NCBI GenBank assembly: GCA_002508545.1
Contig: DAVH01000062.1
Span: 559 to 64,558, forward strand
Length of the DNA: 64,000 nt
DNA from: Methanomassiliicoccus sp. UBA6
GTDB taxonomy: Archaea; Thermoplasmatota; Thermoplasmata; Methanomassiliicoccales; Methanomassiliicoccaceae
Direction: 5' to 3'
Shown: in pieces, positions 13,826-51,560 of the stretch
Layout: the number at the start of each line of letters is the position of its first letter
How positions within the stretch are numbered: position 1 is the first letter of the stretch
The notes under the pieces: generated by a model
What the model was told of the DNA's origin: nothing
What the model saw: the letters and a program-made list of their open reading frames with translations, nothing else
Database searches by the model: none
Translations under genes and position numbers: made by a program

Positions 13826-14677
13826 TCAGATCTTCGCTGGAAGTTCCTGGAGCTCGAGCCCCAGCCTCTCCTTGGGGACGCCCATTGCTAGGCCGTACAG
13901 CTGGGCCAGGTGGATGACCGGGATATCGTAGCCCTTGACATCCTTCTGGGTCCTGTCGAACTGAAGGTGGCAGAACGGACACACGTCGATGATGAACTGC
14001 GCGCCGACCGACTTCATGTTCTTCAGCTTCTCCTCGGTGAACTTGGTAGCGAGGGCAGGGTTCCCGGAGCGGACGCCGCCACCGGCGCCGCAGCACATCA
14101 TCTTGTCCTTGTAGTCGACGCTCTTGGCGCCGGTGACCTCGACCAGCTCGTCGAGCAGCTTGGGGCGCTCGGGATCGTCGAGCTCCTTGATGTTGCTGGG
14201 CTTGAGGAAGTGGCAGCCGTAGTGGACCGCGACCTTGAGGTCCAGGGGGTTCTTGATGTGGGACTTCAGGTGGTCTAGGCCGATCTCCTTGTAGAAGACC
14301 TCGGCGAAGTGGTGGACCTTGACGTCCCCGTTGTACTCCAGACCGACCTCGCGCAGGATCTTGTTGACCGCGCGGAGCTTCTCAGGGTCGTTGTGGAGCA
14401 CATGGGCGGCCTCGAACAGAGAGCCGTAGCAGCCGTTGCAGATGGTGAGGATGTCGGCGCCCTTGTTCTGGGCCAGGGCGAGGTTCCTCGCGGCGATGGC
14501 CAGCCATGCATCCTGCTCGAAGGACTTGATCACACCGGGGGCGGGGCAGCAGCCGGCGCCCTCCAGCTCCACGATCTCCATCCCCAGTTCTTTGCAGACC
14601 TCACGGGTGGAGGACTCAATGCCCGGGTACCTGGCAGGAGCCACGCAGCCGAGGAACAGAGCGTACTTCTTAGCCAT
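13826..14677 (-). CDS. hdrB: heterodisulfide reductase subunit B
   Basis: MAKKYALFLGCVAPARYPG... contains two CCG-type cysteine motifs (GAGCCPAPG and MMCCGAGGG) and PFCHLQFD. GGAGGTG lies upstream of the ATG at 14677. Confidence 0.92.
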   Translation of the reverse strand: MAKKYALFLGCVAPARYPGIESSTREVCKELGMEIVELEGAGCCPAPGVIKSFEQDAWLAIAARNLALAQNKGADILTICNGCYGSLFEAAHVLHNDPEKLRAVNKILREVGLEYNGDVKVHHFAEVFYKEIGLDHLKSHIKNPLDLKVAVHYGCHFLKPSNIKELDDPERPKLLDELVEVTGAKSVDYKDKMMCCGAGGGVRSGNPALATKFTEEKLKNMKSVGAQFIIDVCPFCHLQFDRTQKDVKGYDIPVIHLAQLYGLAMGVPKERLGLELQELPAKI

Positions 14678-14678
14678 T

Positions 14679-15191
14679 TCAAGCACCTCCGATGAGCTTG
14701 TCGAAGCCAGTGGCCTTCAGGACCTTCTGGAAGTCTTCCAGGGCCTTCTTGTCGCCCAGGGTGTTCACCGGGCGGCGGGACAGACCCAGCTTCTCGCGGG
14801 CTTCCTCGTACTTGGGGCTCAGGGGGATGGTGGCACCGTTGGCAAGGAGATACTGCCCGACCTTGCGGTGCTCCTCGGTCATGACGCCCTCCTTTACCGC
14901 CATGTTCCTCAGGATGGTGATGATGTCCACGATCTCGACCCCACGGGGGCAGCGCTCCATGCAGGTGTAGCAGGTAGTGCAGGCCCACAGGTCGGGGGAC
15001 TTCAGGACGTCCTCCTTCAGACCCAGCTGGGCCTTGCGGATGAGCTTCCTGGTCCGGTACGAGGTCATGCGCCCGGAGGGGCAGCTGGCAGTGCAGGTAC
15101 CGCACTGGAAGCAGAGCATCAAGCTCTCGCCGCCGTGCTGCTTCTGCACGGCCTCAGCGAACTCTGGACTCGGTTCCTTGGGAGATGACAA
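14679..15191 (-). CDS. hdrC: heterodisulfide reductase subunit C
   Basis: CFQCGTCTASCPSGR and CTTCYTCMERCPRGV are two 4Fe-4S motifs. The likely start is TTG at 15191, with AAGGTG 8 nt upstream. The stop lies 1 nt before the hdrB ATG. Confidence 0.88.
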   Translation of the reverse strand: MSSPKEPSPEFAEAVQKQHGGESLMLCFQCGTCTASCPSGRMTSYRTRKLIRKAQLGLKEDVLKSPDLWACTTCYTCMERCPRGVEIVDIITILRNMAVKEGVMTEEHRKVGQYLLANGATIPLSPKYEEAREKLGLSRRPVNTLGDKKALEDFQKVLKATGFDKLIGGA

Positions 15192-15253
15192 TTATTTCAC
15201 CTTGGTTCGATGATGGTCGGACGTTATTTAAACTTATAGAAAAATGGGCACGT

Positions 15254-15275
15254 GTATAACCTAAAAAGGTTATAC
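15254..15275. promoter_or_regulatory. perfect 8-bp inverted repeat GTATAACC-N6-GGTTATAC between the regulator gene and the hdrC promoter region
   Basis: Read directly from the sequence. It overlaps the stop codon of the wHTH regulator gene and lies about 65-85 nt upstream of the hdrC start. A TTTAAATA box sits on the hdrC side at about 15224-15232. Confidence 0.35.
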
Positions 15276-16094
15276 TCTGTGGCCTACTTTCCTCAGCGCC
15301 GACACCAGCTTGCGCACCTGAGGCGTCTCCTTGCGGTACACCGCGTTAATCTGATGGGTCAGCTTGGCCGGGTCGGTATCGCTCCTCACCTTCAGCCCCC
15401 TTCTCAGGGCAAGGGACTCGTTGATGAAGAACGAGAGGCCGGAGGCGAGCATCATCTCCGGCGACCGGAAGTGGCGGACGATCTCGTGCTCGGTCCCGGC
15501 GCTCTCCAGGTGCCGGAACCCGATCCTCTGCGCCCCGTATGCCCACCGGGCGTAGCGGGGCCCGCGGTCCACGTGCAGCAGGCGGTCGGTCGCGACCTCC
15601 TGCCATTCCACGCCATCCAGGTCGAAGAGGTACAGGGGGTCGTCCAGGACCACCAGGTCCATCAGCCCCGCCCGGAAGTCCTTGAGGTTGCGCTGGTCAT
15701 CGGAGATTATCAGGTCGCACCCTCCCTCGTGGTCGGCCGCGGTCATCGCCCTTAGGAGCATTTCCTCGGTGATCACCGTGCCCCCGACGACGGTCCCCGC
15801 GGCCGGGGCCACCCGTTTGCTGAGGGCGATGTACTCGAGGGCGATGCGCTCGCCCTCCTCGTTCAAGGTCGTCCCCCGGGGGGTGGTGACCAGCAGCCCG
15901 GTCCCGGCCTTGGCCTCGATCTGCCCAAGGTACCGGTTCAGCACCGGGACGGCGATGCCCAGGCGGGCCGCGGCCCGGTTCTGGCTGCCTTCCTCGTACA
16001 CCGCCTGGAGGACCTCCAGCTGGCGGGTGGTTAGCGTCGCCTTCCCCACTTTGAGAGCGATCGCGGGCTCCAGCCTCAGTTCTCGGGACGGCAT
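15270..16094 (-). CDS. LysR/ModE-type winged-HTH transcriptional regulator
   Basis: LTTRQLEVLQAVYEEGSQNRAAARLGIAVPVLNRYLGQIEAKAGTGLLVTTPRGTTLNEEG fits the HTH_1 pattern. I cannot assign the C-terminal approximately 180 aa. AGGAGG lies before the ATG. Confidence 0.65.
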   Translation of the reverse strand: MPSRELRLEPAIALKVGKATLTTRQLEVLQAVYEEGSQNRAAARLGIAVPVLNRYLGQIEAKAGTGLLVTTPRGTTLNEEGERIALEYIALSKRVAPAAGTVVGGTVITEEMLLRAMTAADHEGGCDLIISDDQRNLKDFRAGLMDLVVLDDPLYLFDLDGVEWQEVATDRLLHVDRGPRYARWAYGAQRIGFRHLESAGTEHEIVRHFRSPEMMLASGLSFFINESLALRRGLKVRSDTDPAKLTHQINAVYRKETPQVRKLVSALRKVGHRV

Positions 16095-16190
16095 CCTCCT
16101 GCGGATGGTCGGGCAGGGATATGAAATCAGCCGAGCTTCCGGGCATAATTGGCGAAACCTTTTCTAGCTCCCTCTTGTTGGGCGAGGAGG

Positions 16191-16655
16191 ATGAAGAACC
16201 GAACGCTTGTCCTTGGCATAGGCAGTCCGATCATGTGCGACGACGCCATCGGCCTGAGGGTCCTGCAGGAGCTGCACAAGAAGGGGGTCCAGGGCGTGGA
16301 CCTCGAGGAGGCTTGCGCGAGCGGGCTGGACCTCATCGAGATCATGCTCGATCACGAGGTTGTCATCGTGGTCGATGCGATCATCAAGTCGGGCCAGCCG
16401 GCGGGCACGATCATGGTGCTGTCCCCGGAGGACTTCAGCGACACCGTGCACGGCACCAACCCCCACGAGGCGAACGTGGCCACGACCATCGAGCTCGGGA
16501 GGACGCTGGAGCCGGAGAGGTTCCCCAAGAAGGTCCTCTTCGTGGCGGTGGAGGCGAATGATGTGTTCACCGTCAGCGAGCAGATGACCCCCGAGGTGGA
16601 GGCCGCCCTGAGCAAGGCGGTGGACAAGGTCCTCGAGCTCATCGCCGAGAACTGA
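16191..16655 (+). CDS. hydrogenase maturation endopeptidase (HycI/FrhD/HyaD family)
   Basis: MKNRTLVLGIGSPIMCDDAIGLRV...VVDA...HGTNPHE matches the family pattern. GAGGAGG lies directly upstream of the ATG at 16191; the track start at 16149 is less likely. Confidence 0.85.
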   Translation: MKNRTLVLGIGSPIMCDDAIGLRVLQELHKKGVQGVDLEEACASGLDLIEIMLDHEVVIVVDAIIKSGQPAGTIMVLSPEDFSDTVHGTNPHEANVATTIELGRTLEPERFPKKVLFVAVEANDVFTVSEQMTPEVEAALSKAVDKVLELIAEN

Positions 16656-17930
16656 TCAGAAGTCCAGGTCCGCGAGGTTCTTCGCCTGGCCCTCGCTCTC
16701 GGCCTTGGGCGCGTGCATGGCGACCGCCAGCTTTTCCCGCACCAGCAGCCTCTCGGCGGCCTTGAGGACGTCCTCCTCGGTGACCATGTCCATCCTCCGG
16801 AGCGTTTCCTCCGGCGTGATCGCCTCGCCGCTGGCCATGAACATCTCCCCCAGGCGCACCATCCTGGCCTCGGTGCTCTCCAGCCTGCGGACGTAAGCGC
16901 CCTTCAGGAGATGCTTGGACCTCTTCAGCTCATCCTTCTCCAGCCCCTCGGACTTCAGCCGGCCGATCTCCTTGGCCACCAGCCGGGCCACCTTCTCCTG
17001 GTCCTTCACCGCGGTGTTGTAGAACACGGCCAGGGAGCCGCAGTCGGTGTAGCTCCCCGAGGAGGCGTAGATCTCATAGACCAGGCCGGAACGCTCCCTT
17101 ATCTCCTGGAACAGGCGGCACGAGGTGCCCATGCCCAGCACCGAGGAGAGCATCCTCTGGGCGAACCGGTCGGGGTCCACGGCGCTCAGTCCGGGGAACC
17201 CCATCCCGACGTAGGCCTGCTTGTCATCCCGGGGAAAGACCCTGAACCCGGCGGCGGGCTTCGGCGCGCTGCGGTCCCTGGAGCGGGGACGGGGCTCGAG
17301 GCCGTCGAACGTCCGCGAAGCCCACTCCATGACCTGCTGCCGGTCCACGTTGCCGACCGCCAGGACGGCCATGTGAGGAGGCCGGTAGTGCTCCTGGAAG
17401 AATGCGCGGATGCCCTGCTCGGTGAGCGCGGATACGGTGGCCACCGAGCCGGCCTCCGAACGACCCATGGGGTGCTTGCCCCACAGGGCCTCGTTGAACA
17501 GGACGTGGATGTAGTCGTCGGGGTCGTTCTCCAGCATCCTGATCTCCTGGATCACCACGTTCTTCTCCGTCACCAAGCATTCCTTGGACAGCATGGGGTT
17601 GAGCACCATGTCCGCCAGTATGCGCTCGGCCACTTCCGCGGTCTCGTCAAGGGCGTAGGCCTGGTAGGTGGTGACCTCCTTGGTGGTGTACCCGTTCTGC
17701 TCCCCCCCGGCCGCCTCGATCTCCTCGGCCATCTGCCTGGCGGTGCGGTTCTCGGTGCCCTTGAACAGCATATGCTCGAGCATGTGGGCGATCCCCGCCT
17801 CATCGTCGGTCTCGTCGCGGGAGCCCGTCCCGAAGTACGTGGAGAAGGACGCGGAATGAGTGGAAGGGAGGCATTCGACGATCACTGGAATGCCTCCAGA
17901 AGTGTGCAGCACCTCGATCCTGTCGGTCAT
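16656..17930 (-). CDS. M16-family (pitrilysin/insulinase-like) zinc peptidase
   Basis: The inverted zinc motif HMLEHMLFKGT (HxxEH) is present and the 424-aa length is typical. Confidence 0.88.
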   Translation of the reverse strand: MTDRIEVLHTSGGIPVIVECLPSTHSASFSTYFGTGSRDETDDEAGIAHMLEHMLFKGTENRTARQMAEEIEAAGGEQNGYTTKEVTTYQAYALDETAEVAERILADMVLNPMLSKECLVTEKNVVIQEIRMLENDPDDYIHVLFNEALWGKHPMGRSEAGSVATVSALTEQGIRAFFQEHYRPPHMAVLAVGNVDRQQVMEWASRTFDGLEPRPRSRDRSAPKPAAGFRVFPRDDKQAYVGMGFPGLSAVDPDRFAQRMLSSVLGMGTSCRLFQEIRERSGLVYEIYASSGSYTDCGSLAVFYNTAVKDQEKVARLVAKEIGRLKSEGLEKDELKRSKHLLKGAYVRRLESTEARMVRLGEMFMASGEAITPEETLRRMDMVTEEDVLKAAERLLVREKLAVAMHAPKAESEGQAKNLADLDF

Positions 17931-18148
17931 GTGCGTTCATGGATTTCCCGATGCCATATTACTTTGCATATCCCTCTCGGGGCCGCCTCGGTGACGGCGG
18001 GAGCATGTCGGCGCCCTGCCGAGAGGACGGGACCGGGCGACGGCAGGTGTGCGGAGGCGGGCCTAAGGGGCCACGGGGGCGGGAGAATTTCGGCGCCGGA
18101 GAACGATCGCCGAGGTCAGGTTGGTTTTTTCCAGACTAATTTCCAGCC

Positions 18149-18160
18149 AAATATTATATA
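18149..18160 (+). promoter_or_regulatory. TATA-like box for the small GTPase operon
   Basis: AATATTATATAG lies about 30-40 nt upstream of the ATG at 18189. This suggests a leaderless or short-leader transcript. Confidence 0.45.
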
Positions 18161-18188
18161 GAGACATGCCGATTCTTTTCGGCCTGCC

Positions 18189-18701
18189 ATGGAGAAGAAA
18201 CAAATTATCAAGAAAATTTGCCTCCTTGGGGATGGTGGAGTCGGAAAGACGAGCCTGATAGGCAGGTACGTCCTCAATTGTTTCAGCGACGATTACATCG
18301 TGAGCTTTGGTACCAAGGTCTCCAAGAAGGTCATCGACTACGATGAGGTGCAGCTCACGCTCATGATCTGGGATATCCTCGGGCAGAAGTCCCAGAAGGC
18401 CCTCCACGGCGCGTATTACAACGGAGCTAACGGCGTCCTCCTGGTGTGCGACAACACCAGGCCGGAGACGCTGCTGAACCTGCCGGAGTGGAAGCAGGAC
18501 CTAGAGAAGGTCGTCGGACCGGTGCCGATAGTGCCCATCATCAACAAGACCGACCTCCCGTCCGCGCTGGGCACCGAGGACCTGGCCGCGGTGCGTGAGG
18601 CCATGGGCGCGGACTTCCTCCTAACCAGCGCCAAGACGGGTACCGGGGTGCAGGAGGCGTTCGAGCGGCTCGGCCGCCAGATCCTGGGGGTGCCGTCCTG
18701 A
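18189..18701 (+). CDS. Ras/Rab-like small GTPase
   Basis: All G boxes are present: G1 GDGGVGKTS, G2 FGT, G3 WDILGQ, G4 NKTD, G5 TSAKTG. 170 aa. Confidence 0.88.
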   Translation: MEKKQIIKKICLLGDGGVGKTSLIGRYVLNCFSDDYIVSFGTKVSKKVIDYDEVQLTLMIWDILGQKSQKALHGAYYNGANGVLLVCDNTRPETLLNLPEWKQDLEKVVGPVPIVPIINKTDLPSALGTEDLAAVREAMGADFLLTSAKTGTGVQEAFERLGRQILGVPS

Positions 18702-18715
18702 ACCCGTTCTTCGTC

Positions 18716-19684
18716 ATGCCCGCGGCCGCCCTCCTCTCGCTCCGTGAGGAGCTGGACCTCATCTCGGAGGGGCGGGCGGGGGAGACGCTGGAGCGCACCG
18801 GGTTCAAGGCCGGGATGACCCTGGTGTCCACGCTGGACGTGCCCCCGCCGTCGCTCGAGAACTTTTCCGAGGTGTTCACCCAGCTGTGGTCGGAGAGCGG
18901 CCTGTCCCGGACCAAGGTGGTGAGGGTGAGCGCGGACGAGATCGTGGTGACCTTCGACGAGTCGGCGGAGGCGGCCAGGGGCTACAAGTGCGACTTCACC
19001 CGGGGATACCTCGCCGGCATCGTCACGGCCCTGCTGGGCCGCCGGTACAAGGCGTCCGAGCTGGTGTGCATGTCGCAGAAGGCGGAGCGCTGTGTCCACC
19101 ACCTCGTGCCGGTGTCGGACATCCCGATGGCCGGGATGCATCCATCCACCATCTCCGGGGACCGCAAGTACAAGCTGGAGTCCGGATGCTCGTACCTCAT
19201 AGAGTCGGAGGACGCCCGGGAGGCGTTCGAGATCATGGCGGAGTACGTGGCCCACGGCAGCCCGGGGCTGTGCATCTCCCGCGAGTACCCGGACAAGCTC
19301 CGCAAGACCTTCCGGCTGGACGGGGCGAAGATGATCTGGCTGTCGTACGAGGGCGAGCGGGGCAACGCGCTCGAACCGACCAACATCCCGCTGATTTACA
19401 GCGAGATCAAGGCCTTCCTGGAGCAGACCTCCGGCGCGGTCTTCCTCATCAGCGGGCTGGAGTACCTGGTCTCGCAGACCAATTTCGTGAAGGTGCTCAA
19501 GTTCGTTCAGCTGCTGTCCGAGGCGGCGGCGGTGAGCGATTCGATCTTCCTGCTCCCGATCAGCCCCGGCGCCCTGACCACGAGGGAGGTAAAGATGCTC
19601 GAGCGGGAGTTCCGGGACCTCGGGCCCACCAACAACGGCTTCGGTCACCCGCTTTCCGAAGACGGGAACGGCACGGAGAGGTGA
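18716..19684 (+). CDS. V4R domain plus DUF835 domain protein
   Basis: The N-terminal half ends with KCDFTRGYLAGIVTALLGRRYKASELVCMSQKAERCVHHL, a V4R-type Cys/Gly pattern. The C-terminal half, GCSYLIESEDAREAFEIMAEYVAHGSPGLCISREYPDKLRK...MIWLS...FLISGLEYLV, fits DUF835. The ATG lies 14 nt after the GTPase stop. Confidence 0.7.
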   Translation: MPAAALLSLREELDLISEGRAGETLERTGFKAGMTLVSTLDVPPPSLENFSEVFTQLWSESGLSRTKVVRVSADEIVVTFDESAEAARGYKCDFTRGYLAGIVTALLGRRYKASELVCMSQKAERCVHHLVPVSDIPMAGMHPSTISGDRKYKLESGCSYLIESEDAREAFEIMAEYVAHGSPGLCISREYPDKLRKTFRLDGAKMIWLSYEGERGNALEPTNIPLIYSEIKAFLEQTSGAVFLISGLEYLVSQTNFVKVLKFVQLLSEAAAVSDSIFLLPISPGALTTREVKMLEREFRDLGPTNNGFGHPLSEDGNGTER

Positions 19685-19782
19685 GCCTCGAAGAGGGCCG
19701 GCCCGTGCATGGCCAGAATACTGTCTTCGGGTCATCTTGCATGGGGAAACGCTTAAATTCGAGGTCTTATTTACTTCGCTTT

Positions 19783-20253
19783 ATGCATCTCGTTCCAAAG
19801 AAGTTCTTCATCAGTTCTGGCTGCGCCGTGAGCAAGGTCTCCGACCTCAACGCCTTCGACAAGGCCCTGCTCGAGGCGGGCATCGGTGAGCTGAACATCG
19901 TATCCGTTTCCTCGGTCCTTCCGGTCGGCGCCGAGCAGGTCGGGATCAGGGAGCTGCCCATGGGAGCGGTCACCCACTGCGTCCTCGCCCAGATGAGGGG
20001 AGGAGAGGGCGAGATGATCTCCGCCGGCATCGCCTACGGGTTCCGCAAGGACGGCAGGGGCGGGTACGTCGCCGAGGGGCACATACACGGCTCCAAGAAG
20101 GCCCTCCGCGAGATCATGGAGTGGAAGATGGACGAGATGGCGAAGCTCCGGGGGATCGAGATGGAGACCATCGAGTACCGCATTGAGGAGCTCTCGGTGC
20201 CCATGGACAACTATGGGGCCTGCGTCGCTGCTCTGGTCTTCGTCGAATACTGA
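19783..20253 (+). CDS. pdaD: pyruvoyl-dependent arginine decarboxylase
   Basis: MHLVPKKFFISSGCAVSKVSDLNAFDKALLEAGIGELNIVSVSSVLP contains the Ser-Ser self-cleavage site. It is the last 156 codons of the composite track ORF 18886..20253. An alternative ATG lies at 19741. Confidence 0.88.
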   Translation: MHLVPKKFFISSGCAVSKVSDLNAFDKALLEAGIGELNIVSVSSVLPVGAEQVGIRELPMGAVTHCVLAQMRGGEGEMISAGIAYGFRKDGRGGYVAEGHIHGSKKALREIMEWKMDEMAKLRGIEMETIEYRIEELSVPMDNYGACVAALVFVEY

Positions 20254-48467: not shown

Positions 48468-48642
48468 GCCTCGCTCATGTGGCAAGCGGTCAGGGAATAT
48501 ATCAACCTATTCTGCGCGCTCCCCCTGGACCGGCCGACCGGCGGCTCGATGAACCGTGGCGATGTTCCAGGCGATGGCGGAAGCGGGTTGGGAGGAATAC
48601 GGGTCACCGAAAATGCTCAATAATCGTAGCTATAATTTTTCA

Positions 48643-51067: not shown

Positions 51068-51560
51068 GATACTGCTAGAAAGACTGAAGAACGAGCTGAG
51101 GGCGAGCGCAGGCTATGTGCGAGACGCTCCCGACCTCAGCGACCCCAGTAAGCTGGCGTGGCCTATCCACATCGTCATCGAGCTGAACCGGATCCCCGCC
51201 TATTTCATGGTCCGGGGCAAGCGCAGGGTGAGGTACTCGCATCGGTTCCGCATGACGATCAATAAGGATTATCCCTACAGCAAGCCCACGGTGACATGGC
51301 TGACCCCGATTCTCCATCCCAACATCATGGTACCGCAGGACGGAGGCCAGATATGCACCAAGCTCCTGGAGGGATGGGACTTCAACTCCACCATGATCTC
51401 GTTCATCAAGGGAGTGGAAGCTCTGTTGATCACTCCCAACCCGTCCAACCCGTTCGGCACCGACAGCTGTACGGCAGCAGCGGAGTATTACAACAAGGGC
51501 CCGAGGTACCTGCCTCCGCTTGCCAGGGTCCCCCCGCCGCGGGTGGTGAGCCGTCGGTGA
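51051..51560 (+). CDS. ubiquitin-conjugating enzyme (UBC/E2) fold protein
   Basis: RFRMTINKDYPYSKPTVTWLTPILHPNIMVPQDGGQICTKLLEGWDFNSTMISFIKGVEALLITPNPSNP carries the HPN motif, a catalytic Cys in the G-x-IC context, the following Trp, and the PNP(x)xP motif. The GTG start overlaps the Ubl gene by 17 nt. Confidence 0.85.
   Translation: MPLPSEILLERLKNELRASAGYVRDAPDLSDPSKLAWPIHIVIELNRIPAYFMVRGKRRVRYSHRFRMTINKDYPYSKPTVTWLTPILHPNIMVPQDGGQICTKLLEGWDFNSTMISFIKGVEALLITPNPSNPFGTDSCTAAAEYYNKGPRYLPPLARVPPPRVVSRR

Follow-up and report, generated by a model that had tools for sequence, protein, structure and literature searches.

A Ras-like GTPase gene paired with a V4R-DUF835 gene in Methanomassiliicoccus suggests an apparently undescribed GTPase-partner signalling module

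Described systems closest to the locus

Prokaryotic Ras-like GTPases work with Roadblock (MglB-type) partners, and the V4R domain is tied to eukaryotic trafficking only through the similarity of its fold to that of Bet3. Here we analyzed a stretch of 64,000 nucleotides (nt), hereafter the window, from Methanomassiliicoccus sp. UBA6 (assembly GCA_002508545.1, contig DAVH01000062.1, positions 559 to 64,558), in which a gene for a Ras/Rab-like small GTPase immediately precedes a gene for a protein, hereafter the partner, that joins an N-terminal V4R domain to a C-terminal DUF835 domain. A small-GTPase operon with a V4R-type partner, a pairing that recurs throughout an archaeal phylum, suggests an apparently undescribed GTPase-partner signalling module, and with slightly more confidence than doubt we read the locus as a bicistronic, translationally coupled operon for a small-GTPase switch and its dedicated partner.

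The MglA-MglB/Roadblock operons and the actinobacterial conservons (PMC4316618) resemble this locus in that a single-domain GTPase gene lies beside the gene of a small dedicated partner with which it is probably co-translated, and in some relatives of the locus the cluster includes a Roadblock/LC7 gene as well. They differ from it in the fold of the partner, here V4R and not Roadblock, and in the GTPase, whose G3 box is of the standard DxxGQ type and which looks Rab-like and not MglA-like. The first-pass annotation had opposed this pair to GTPases that have Roadblock partners instead; there is indeed no Roadblock gene in the window, but the opposition was too sharp, since Roadblock/LC7 and V4R genes share clusters in relatives. 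A survey from 2015 gave no conserved neighbours for Group 4 MglA (methanogens/Euryarchaeota) or for Group 2 Rup (PMC4316618), and no V4R neighbour is reported in the small-GTPase surveys for prokaryotes and archaea (PMC4316618, PMC4915359). An earlier description of the GTPase-V4R pairing was not found in the literature covered, which did not include Makarova, Galperin and Koonin 2017 (mBio, KaiC-like ATPases).

With Rab1/Ypt1 and TRAPP, the locus shares the linkage of a Rab-like GTPase gene to a protein of the Bet3/V4R fold, and the putative Cys-based metal site of the partner resembles those of Thorarchaeota TRAPPC3 and of PoxR (PMC10933270). It differs from TRAPP in that the partner falls outside the Bet3 family by sequence, in that longin subunits are absent and in that the GTPase has no prenylation Cys; the lineage, moreover, is Thermoplasmatota and not Asgard. 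For the Asgard archaeon MK-D1, GTPase genes are reported to lie, in general, outside operons with Roadblock, longin or TRAPPC3 genes (PMC10933270), whereas the operon link is the main feature of the present locus. The paper that relates V4R to Bet3 (PMC2253512) makes no mention of GTPases.

Three further systems share domains with the partner. The 4VR domains of MopR, PoxR and DmpR are the closest by both profile and structure, with a C-E-C-C motif that aligns exactly; in those proteins, however, the domain gates an AAA+ sigma-54 activator within the same polypeptide, whereas the V4R domain here occurs either by itself or joined to a dead KaiC-like domain, with a GTPase gene linked to it. MsvR, a redox-sensing regulator of methanogens, has a V4R domain with redox-sensing cysteines (PMC3729527) and shares with the partner the conserved cysteines and the methanogen host, but it has an N-terminal DNA-binding domain and no GTPase link. 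Finally, DUF835 is labelled iKaiC (inactivated KaiC) and serves as the signalling output domain of archaeal response regulators, as in REC-DUF835 proteins (PMC5847659), an arrangement that we also observed in a DUF835-only locus (L091). The domain belongs to the same Pfam family there, lies C-terminal behind a sensory or receiver domain and has no Walker A motif; the difference is the input domain, which is V4R here and not REC or PAS.

Pairing of GTPase and V4R genes across genomes

We scanned species-representative genomes for the partner and obtained 79 loci, which were annotated with our own hidden Markov models (HMMs) for Ras, V4R and DUF835. The scan was keyed on two peptide patterns, and the sample is biased towards this partner subfamily. 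A gene was considered paired when a Ras-like gene lay at most 150 nt upstream on the same strand, as was the case for 57 of 62 V4R-DUF835 genes and for 8 of 10 standalone V4R genes, the latter being complete open reading frames (ORFs) of 150-190 aa whose Pfam V4R scores (42.8-60.4 bits) exceed the cutoff. None of the seven assessable DUF835-only genes had such a neighbour, and this result stayed negative with a relaxed HMM and with an HMM-independent motif scan; at four further DUF835-only loci, in one of which the upstream sequence is absent, a Ras-family gene was not found either. The counts differed by architecture with a Fisher p=1.2e-6, for loci that are not phylogenetically independent, and the 75 Ras matches detected in 1.03 Mb were all inside these clusters. 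The GTPase gene tracks the V4R domain, not DUF835, and DUF835 as the GTPase-linked domain was ruled out by the DUF835-only genes, which had no Ras neighbour in any locus examined. The proposal of a specific GTPase-V4R pairing is strongly supported by its conservation in different neighbourhoods, and also by the standalone V4R genes, the DUF835-only absence, an inversion of gene order and two fusions.

Within Methanomassiliicoccales, synteny extends over the entire neighbourhood, from M16 peptidase through GTPase and partner to pdaD. Elsewhere, the pair was observed in other surroundings: two Ras genes followed by the partner (L004 and L005) and overlapping Ras, partner and Ras genes (L006 and L007), both with flanks unrelated to those of the window, and a Ras gene with its partner beside pilus-type genes (L093). 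At L094 (5001-6578) the order is inverted in an unrelated neighbourhood, with V4R-DUF835 first and the Ras-like GTPase gene 61 nt downstream. Since the flanking genes turn over and one lineage inverts the gene order, these observations argue for selection on the pair itself and not for chance synteny. In a profile search of 1.84 billion representatives, about 25 clusters had the full V4R-DUF835 architecture, and thousands of DUF835 domains were detected behind other N-terminal modules.

Two fusions place the domains in one polypeptide. P0306 (L008 6001-7584) is a clean ORF of 527 aa with Ras at residues 6-180, a V4R-like region at 199-311 and DUF835 at 375-506; a homology search with it returned only itself and one partial match, so that at this search sensitivity it is a singleton. 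P0383 (L009 1480-2664; 394 aa) joins Ras (1-162) to DUF835 (256-389), and its catalytic Gln is replaced (DIGLIR). The modules are also combined in other ways. A group of Thermoplasmata loci (L018-L022, L024 and L072) has Ras, V4R-DUF835, a second standalone V4R of about 160-175 aa and Roadblock/LC7, as exemplified by the four-gene cluster at L022 7365-9843, and in some of them two or three Ras paralogues are arranged in tandem upstream. L079 (7959-9987) carries a standalone V4R, a Roadblock/LC7 gene and then a fusion of a KaiC ATPase domain (residues 4-231) with an Arf/Ras-like GTPase domain (233-386), and KaiC ATPase genes lie near L004, L038, L045 and L093. Four modules, namely small GTPase, V4R, Roadblock and KaiC or dead KaiC, thus recur in several permutations, a pattern that usually marks a single functional network.

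Some additional features of these loci were recorded. In L085, L067 and L043 the V4R-DUF835 gene is split over two frames, as is the Ras gene in L085; the cause is either pseudogene formation or a frameshift error in the long-read metagenome-assembled genomes. Second Ras paralogues (L004 4440-5414, L010 6599-7420 and L006 1284-2117) have C-terminal extensions of 100-150 aa with no Pfam match. Just upstream of Ras in standalone-V4R loci (L078, at 921-1196, L080, L081, L082, L086 and L088), a conserved protein of about 91 aa with a weak ribbon-helix-helix match is encoded, a candidate for a small DNA-binding protein that regulates the cluster.

The two proteins and their operon

The GTPase was assigned to the Ras superfamily by Pfam Ras (PF00071, 110.2 bits against a cutoff of 21.6), with Roc at 86.8 bits, and by NCBIfam small_GTP. 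All five G boxes had been ascribed to it at first; G1, G3, G4 and G5 were confirmed, but the switch-I Thr was not, the position being Ser39 in this protein. Among 119 homologues, GDGGVGKTS, WD[IV]LGQ with the catalytic Gln, NKxD and SAK are invariant or nearly so, and the switch-I position is Ser in 78 family members and Thr in 41; the nearby Thr42 is not invariant in the family. The best sequence matches in the PDB were a Thorarchaeota Rab (7ezb, 1.1e-24), Rab1B, Rab35 and Sec4. The protein carries RabF4-like YYNGA and RabF5-like LVCDNT, with divergent RabF1 and RabF3 regions. It ends in RQILGVPS with no C-terminal Cys and has no N-terminal Gly2, and only 3 of 120 homologues have a Cys among the last 10 residues. 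The GTPase thus appears Rab-like in sequence but, because it has no C-terminal prenylatable Cys, is not a strict Rab, a class defined by its lipid anchor. Membership of the MglA family was rejected, as the G3 box WDILGQ keeps Asp62 and no Roadblock homologue occurs in the window. The PADLOC defence models gave only a P-loop-level match of 14.5 bits to the GTPase and no match to the partner.

The partner has 142 homologues, and nearly all of the 120 listed have the V4R plus DUF835 Pfam architecture. Its own V4R match (30.5 bits, E=4e-7) falls just short of the curated cutoff of 31, and an identical database protein has a precomputed PF02830 match. While a PDB sequence search with the single protein produced no meaningful match, the family profile reached MopR (2.3e-8), PoxR (4.3e-6) and the V4R protein MJ1460 (1.4e-5). 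The partner was modelled with AlphaFold2 (AF2) from 34 homologues, with a mean predicted local distance difference test score (pLDDT) of 86.9 and a predicted template modelling score (pTM) of 0.60, the domains being individually confident. In a Foldseek search, the N-terminal half matched PoxR, MopR and DmpR best (E about 4e-8, 20-24% identity), then chains of TRAPPC3/Bet3 (6aq3, 1sz7, 2j3w and 7b6d; E 2e-6 to 1e-4, target-normalised template modelling score (TM-score) 0.57-0.68, 12-17% identity), and after these the archaeal V4R protein MJ1460, BcsD and YslB. The precomputed PF02830 match, the family profile and Foldseek agree that the N-terminal half is V4R, as first annotated.

The relation of this half to Bet3, which had also been put forward, held as a significant fold match, but its nearest relatives by sequence and structure are the 4VR domains of the bacterial phenol sensors, not Bet3. 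The Pfam TRAPP family did not match the partner at E<=0.01, and no Bet3 chain was retrieved with the partner profile from the PDB at E<=10. By sequence the partner is not a member of the Bet3/TRAPPC3 family, with which it shares the alpha/beta fold. Its Cys92, Glu115, Cys118 and Cys126 align column by column with C155, E178, C181 and C189 of MopR, the reported zinc ligands of that protein. Of 120 close partner homologues, 117 carry the Cys3-Glu pattern, as do 15 of 23 diverse clusters. NCBIfam MsvR matched the partner weakly, over the C-terminal half of MsvR (26 bits, far below the family cutoff of 220), and this match, together with the conserved cysteines of the MsvR V4R domain, supports a possible redox-sensing role of the Cys cluster.

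The identification of the C-terminal half as DUF835 was borne out by Pfam (PF05763, 99.2 bits against a cutoff of 33.1). Foldseek matched this half to FlaH (4yds, 1.1e-4), FtsK and other RecA/KaiC-like folds, and the Walker A motif was present in none of 120 partner homologues. The DUF835 half is an inactivated KaiC/RecA-like fold; the absent Walker A motif accords with the published inactivated-KaiC label of DUF835 (PMC5847659). Between the two halves the pLDDT of the AF2 model falls to 71-73 (residues 131-150) in a stretch that is variable in the homologue alignment, and the halves are predicted to be joined by a floppy linker, to which the pTM of only 0.60 also points.

Both ORFs were confirmed on the plus strand at the positions given in Table 1. 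The TATA box previously noted before the GTPase gene is present and its position is kept in relatives, where the orthologous GTPase genes of Methanomassiliicoccales loci are preceded at an equal distance by a TTATATA, TTTATA or TTAAATA box. With a TATA-like box only about 30 nt from the ATG, the GTPase-gene mRNA would be leaderless or have a very short leader. The intergenic gap of 14 nt holds for the first ATG of the partner but not when its conserved N-terminus is counted, in which case the genes probably overlap by 4 nt. MNPFFVMP is the N-terminus of most partner homologues, and in the window the peptide NPFFV is encoded in frame upstream of the first ATG, from CTG 18698. In relatives the junction overlap is ATGA in most and GTGA or TTGA in some; the CTGA junction is found in the window, L048 and L065. 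Since these CTGA loci still encode NPFFV through synonymous DNA changes, translation of the partner probably starts at CTG 18698, by coupled re-initiation or as a rare start codon, and not at the ATG.

Most loci have an NTGA stop/start overlap or a gap of 12-15 nt. The overlaps point to coupled translation of both genes, and the supposed co-transcription of GTPase and partner is very likely, given one conserved promoter and stop and start codons that overlap or nearly so. The next gene, pdaD, is the conserved downstream neighbour in Methanomassiliicoccales. Because it sits behind an AT-richer spacer of about 100 nt and has a separate TATA-like box some 25-30 nt ahead of the ATG (box and gene both within 19752-20253), the GTPase-partner operon is most likely bicistronic. 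Rfam matched no family in 17800-19900, and a scan for sigma-70 promoters and intrinsic terminators, models that are not relevant to archaea, produced nothing useful.

Table 1. Features of the GTPase-partner locus and their positions in the window
Feature	Position	Strand	Description
TATA-like box ATATTATATA	18151-18160	+	purine-rich CCAAA stretch in front; 29-38 nt before the GTPase ATG
GTPase ORF	18189-18701	+	170 aa, Ras/Rab-like small GTPase
G1 GDGGVGKTS	18228-18254	+	GTPase residues 14-22
G3 WDILGQ	18369-18386	+	GTPase residues 61-66, with catalytic Gln (Gln66)
G4 NKTD	18543-18554	+	GTPase residues 119-122
G5 SAK	18627-18635	+	GTPase residues 147-149
CTGA stop/start overlap	18698-18701	+	TGA, GTPase stop; CTG, probably where the partner starts (non-canonical codon) or translation re-initiates
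V4R-DUF835 ORF	18716-19684	+	322 aa from first ATG; probably 328 aa from CTG 18698
V4R/4VR domain (XylR_N PF06505 + V4R PF02830)	18716-19120	+	partner residues 1-135, sensor type
Cys92-x22-Glu115-x2-Cys118-x7-Cys126 motif	18989-19093	+	candidate structural zinc or redox site
Interdomain linker	19121-19189	+	partner residues ~136-158, low confidence in AF2
DUF835 domain	19190-19615	+	partner residues ~159-300, KaiC/RecA-like fold without Walker A
pdaD	19783-20253		pyruvoyl-dependent arginine decarboxylase, 156 aa; next gene after the pair

The lower GC content suspected in the 5' part of the GTPase gene is real: it was 0.467 in the first 150 nt compared to about 0.65 in the remainder, while the difference between start and rest over 42 window ORFs (at least 200 aa and GC at third codon positions, GC3, above 0.75) had a mean of -0.025 and a standard deviation of 0.048. 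At 18150-18370 the GC content is only 44-52%, over the promoter and roughly 150 nt at the start of the gene. The dip is due partly to a Lys/Ile-rich N-terminus and partly to a lower GC3 (0.68 at the gene start vs 0.90). Comparable start-of-ORF dips were observed in two other window ORFs, at 48562 in overall GC and at 51296 mainly in GC3.

Upstream of the locus, window positions 13826-17930 encode an HdrB-like CCG-domain protein, an HdrC-like 4Fe-4S protein, a LysR-type helix-turn-helix regulator, a HycI-type hydrogenase maturation protease and the M16 peptidase, a gene set that is syntenic in other Methanomassiliicoccales.

Readings of the pairing and their meaning

Retained adjacency, coupled translation and fusions are classical signatures of physically interacting partners, and a direct physical or regulatory partnership of the GTPase and its partner is reasonably probable from genomic context. 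The analysis establishes the domain identities, the operon structure and the conserved, order-independent adjacency of the GTPase to V4R specifically. We infer direct contact from the operon coupling, this adjacency and the fusions; which way the signal flows, what it consists of and what DUF835 does are inferred as well. In the mechanism that we propose, the V4R/4VR domain, whose fold forms dimers, encloses a cavity and carries a putative Cys3-Glu metal or redox site, would directly contact the Rab-like GTPase, and this contact would couple a small-molecule or redox signal to the nucleotide state, control of exchange or release being favoured. An input role is assigned to V4R because of ligand sensing in MopR, PoxR and DmpR and of the redox-sensitive cysteines in MsvR (PMC3729527). 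DUF835, as a catalytically dead KaiC-like fold, would be an adaptor or oligomerisation module that plugs the GTPase-V4R pair into an archaeal KaiC-type signalling network. That the partner acts upstream, as an exchange factor or another regulator of the nucleotide state, is put forward only tentatively.

Several observations weigh against this reading. The V4R half has its closest characterised relatives among regulators of AAA+ transcription activators, not of GTPases. The Cys3-Glu site is gone in the most divergent partners that are still paired with Ras, so that ligand or redox sensing by V4R may not be universal. Five of the 62 V4R-DUF835 genes and two of the 10 standalone V4R genes have no upstream Ras; among these cases L079 has a GTPase domain downstream, and the V4R-DUF835 genes of L038 and L045 adjoin a KaiC ATPase gene instead. 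The loci that are labelled below domain level belong to Thermoplasmatota or bear only the generic label Methanobacteriota, and at 50% identity there are 13 clusters, 8 of them with Ras, so shared ancestry inflates the counts. Both fusions are singletons from metagenome assemblies. Finally, in a mirror-tree/partial Mantel analysis of 35 syntenic loci, the partial r between GTPase and partner was 0.40, no higher than the 0.38-0.54 of the control pairs, and no signal specific to this pair emerged.

A closer parallel to eukaryotes, in which V4R as a Bet3-fold dimer is the exchange factor of the Rab-like GTPase and the pair is a prokaryotic counterpart or relative of Rab-TRAPP, is unlikely. In its favour are the significant fold match of the V4R half to Bet3/TRAPPC3 (E 2e-6 to 1e-5, target-normalised TM-score 0.60-0.68), the Rab-like character of the GTPase (best PDB matches and the motifs WDxxGQ, YYxGA and LVxDxT) and an adjacency that follows V4R and not DUF835. 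Roadblock and longin are kin folds, and the two V4R paralogues with Roadblock in some relatives' clusters echo the mix of Bet3-family and longin subunits in TRAPP. However, the link to Bet3 does not extend to sequence, where Pfam gives V4R alone and the partner profile retrieves MopR, PoxR and MJ1460, but not Bet3, from the PDB. The TRAPP exchange surface, moreover, consists mostly of the longin subunits Bet5 and Trs23, with only the C-terminal tail of Bet3 entering the nucleotide pocket, and neither the window nor the Methanomassiliicoccales loci have longin or Roadblock genes. The lineage, too, is Thermoplasmatota and not the Asgard relatives of eukaryotes.

The order of events could also be the reverse, with the GTPase upstream and its GTP form binding V4R-DUF835, from which the signal would pass through DUF835 to KaiC-type ATPases or other targets. 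DUF835 is an output domain behind REC, PAS, TPR and AAA modules, KaiC ATPase genes lie near four of the loci and a KaiC-GTPase fusion occurs in L079, and the GTPase retains the full catalytic set, including Gln66, as expected of an autonomous switch. We nevertheless consider it quite improbable that the partner is an effector: standalone V4R proteins, which have no output domain, still pair with the GTPase, so the V4R-GTPase link is independent of DUF835, and V4R domains are known as ligand-binding input modules, not as effector-recognition modules.

Mere co-regulation, in which the two proteins would be co-expressed in the same response, such as that of a strict anaerobe to redox or oxidative stress, but would not touch, is in keeping with the absence of pair-specific co-evolution in the mirror-tree analysis, with the synteny from M16 peptidase to pdaD throughout Methanomassiliicoccales and with the fact that contact is not provable from genomic context alone, but it is very unlikely in view of an adjacency that outlasts complete turnover of the flanking genes and inversion of the gene order, of stop/start overlaps that point to coupled translation and of two fusions that hold the domains in a single polypeptide.

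A broader evolutionary proposal would place a functional link between the Bet3/V4R fold and a small GTPase in archaea outside Asgard as well. The V4R proteins of Thermoplasmatota would be cognate regulators of the nucleotide state, acting by themselves, as fusions with a dead KaiC domain or jointly with a further V4R paralogue and Roadblock, and the Rab-TRAPP relationship would have descended or been recruited from this older, KaiC-wired prokaryotic signalling kit of GTPase, V4R and, in part, Roadblock. We regard this proposal as doubtful.

Matching GTPases to candidate regulators is reported to be hard in Asgard archaea, where the genes are not in operons (PMC10933270). The conserved GTPase-V4R pair is a defined one-to-one pair that can be directly tested for binding, exchange and hydrolysis, with standalone V4R, V4R plus Roadblock and the fusions as useful natural variants. 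Regulation of the GTPase by V4R, if it occurs, would provide the first functional evidence for a pre-eukaryotic role of the Bet3/V4R fold as a GTPase partner, and it would connect small GTPases to the proposed archaeal KaiC-based signalling network. Otherwise the pair would still represent a new module of sensor plus switch, in methanogens from the human gut and from wetlands.

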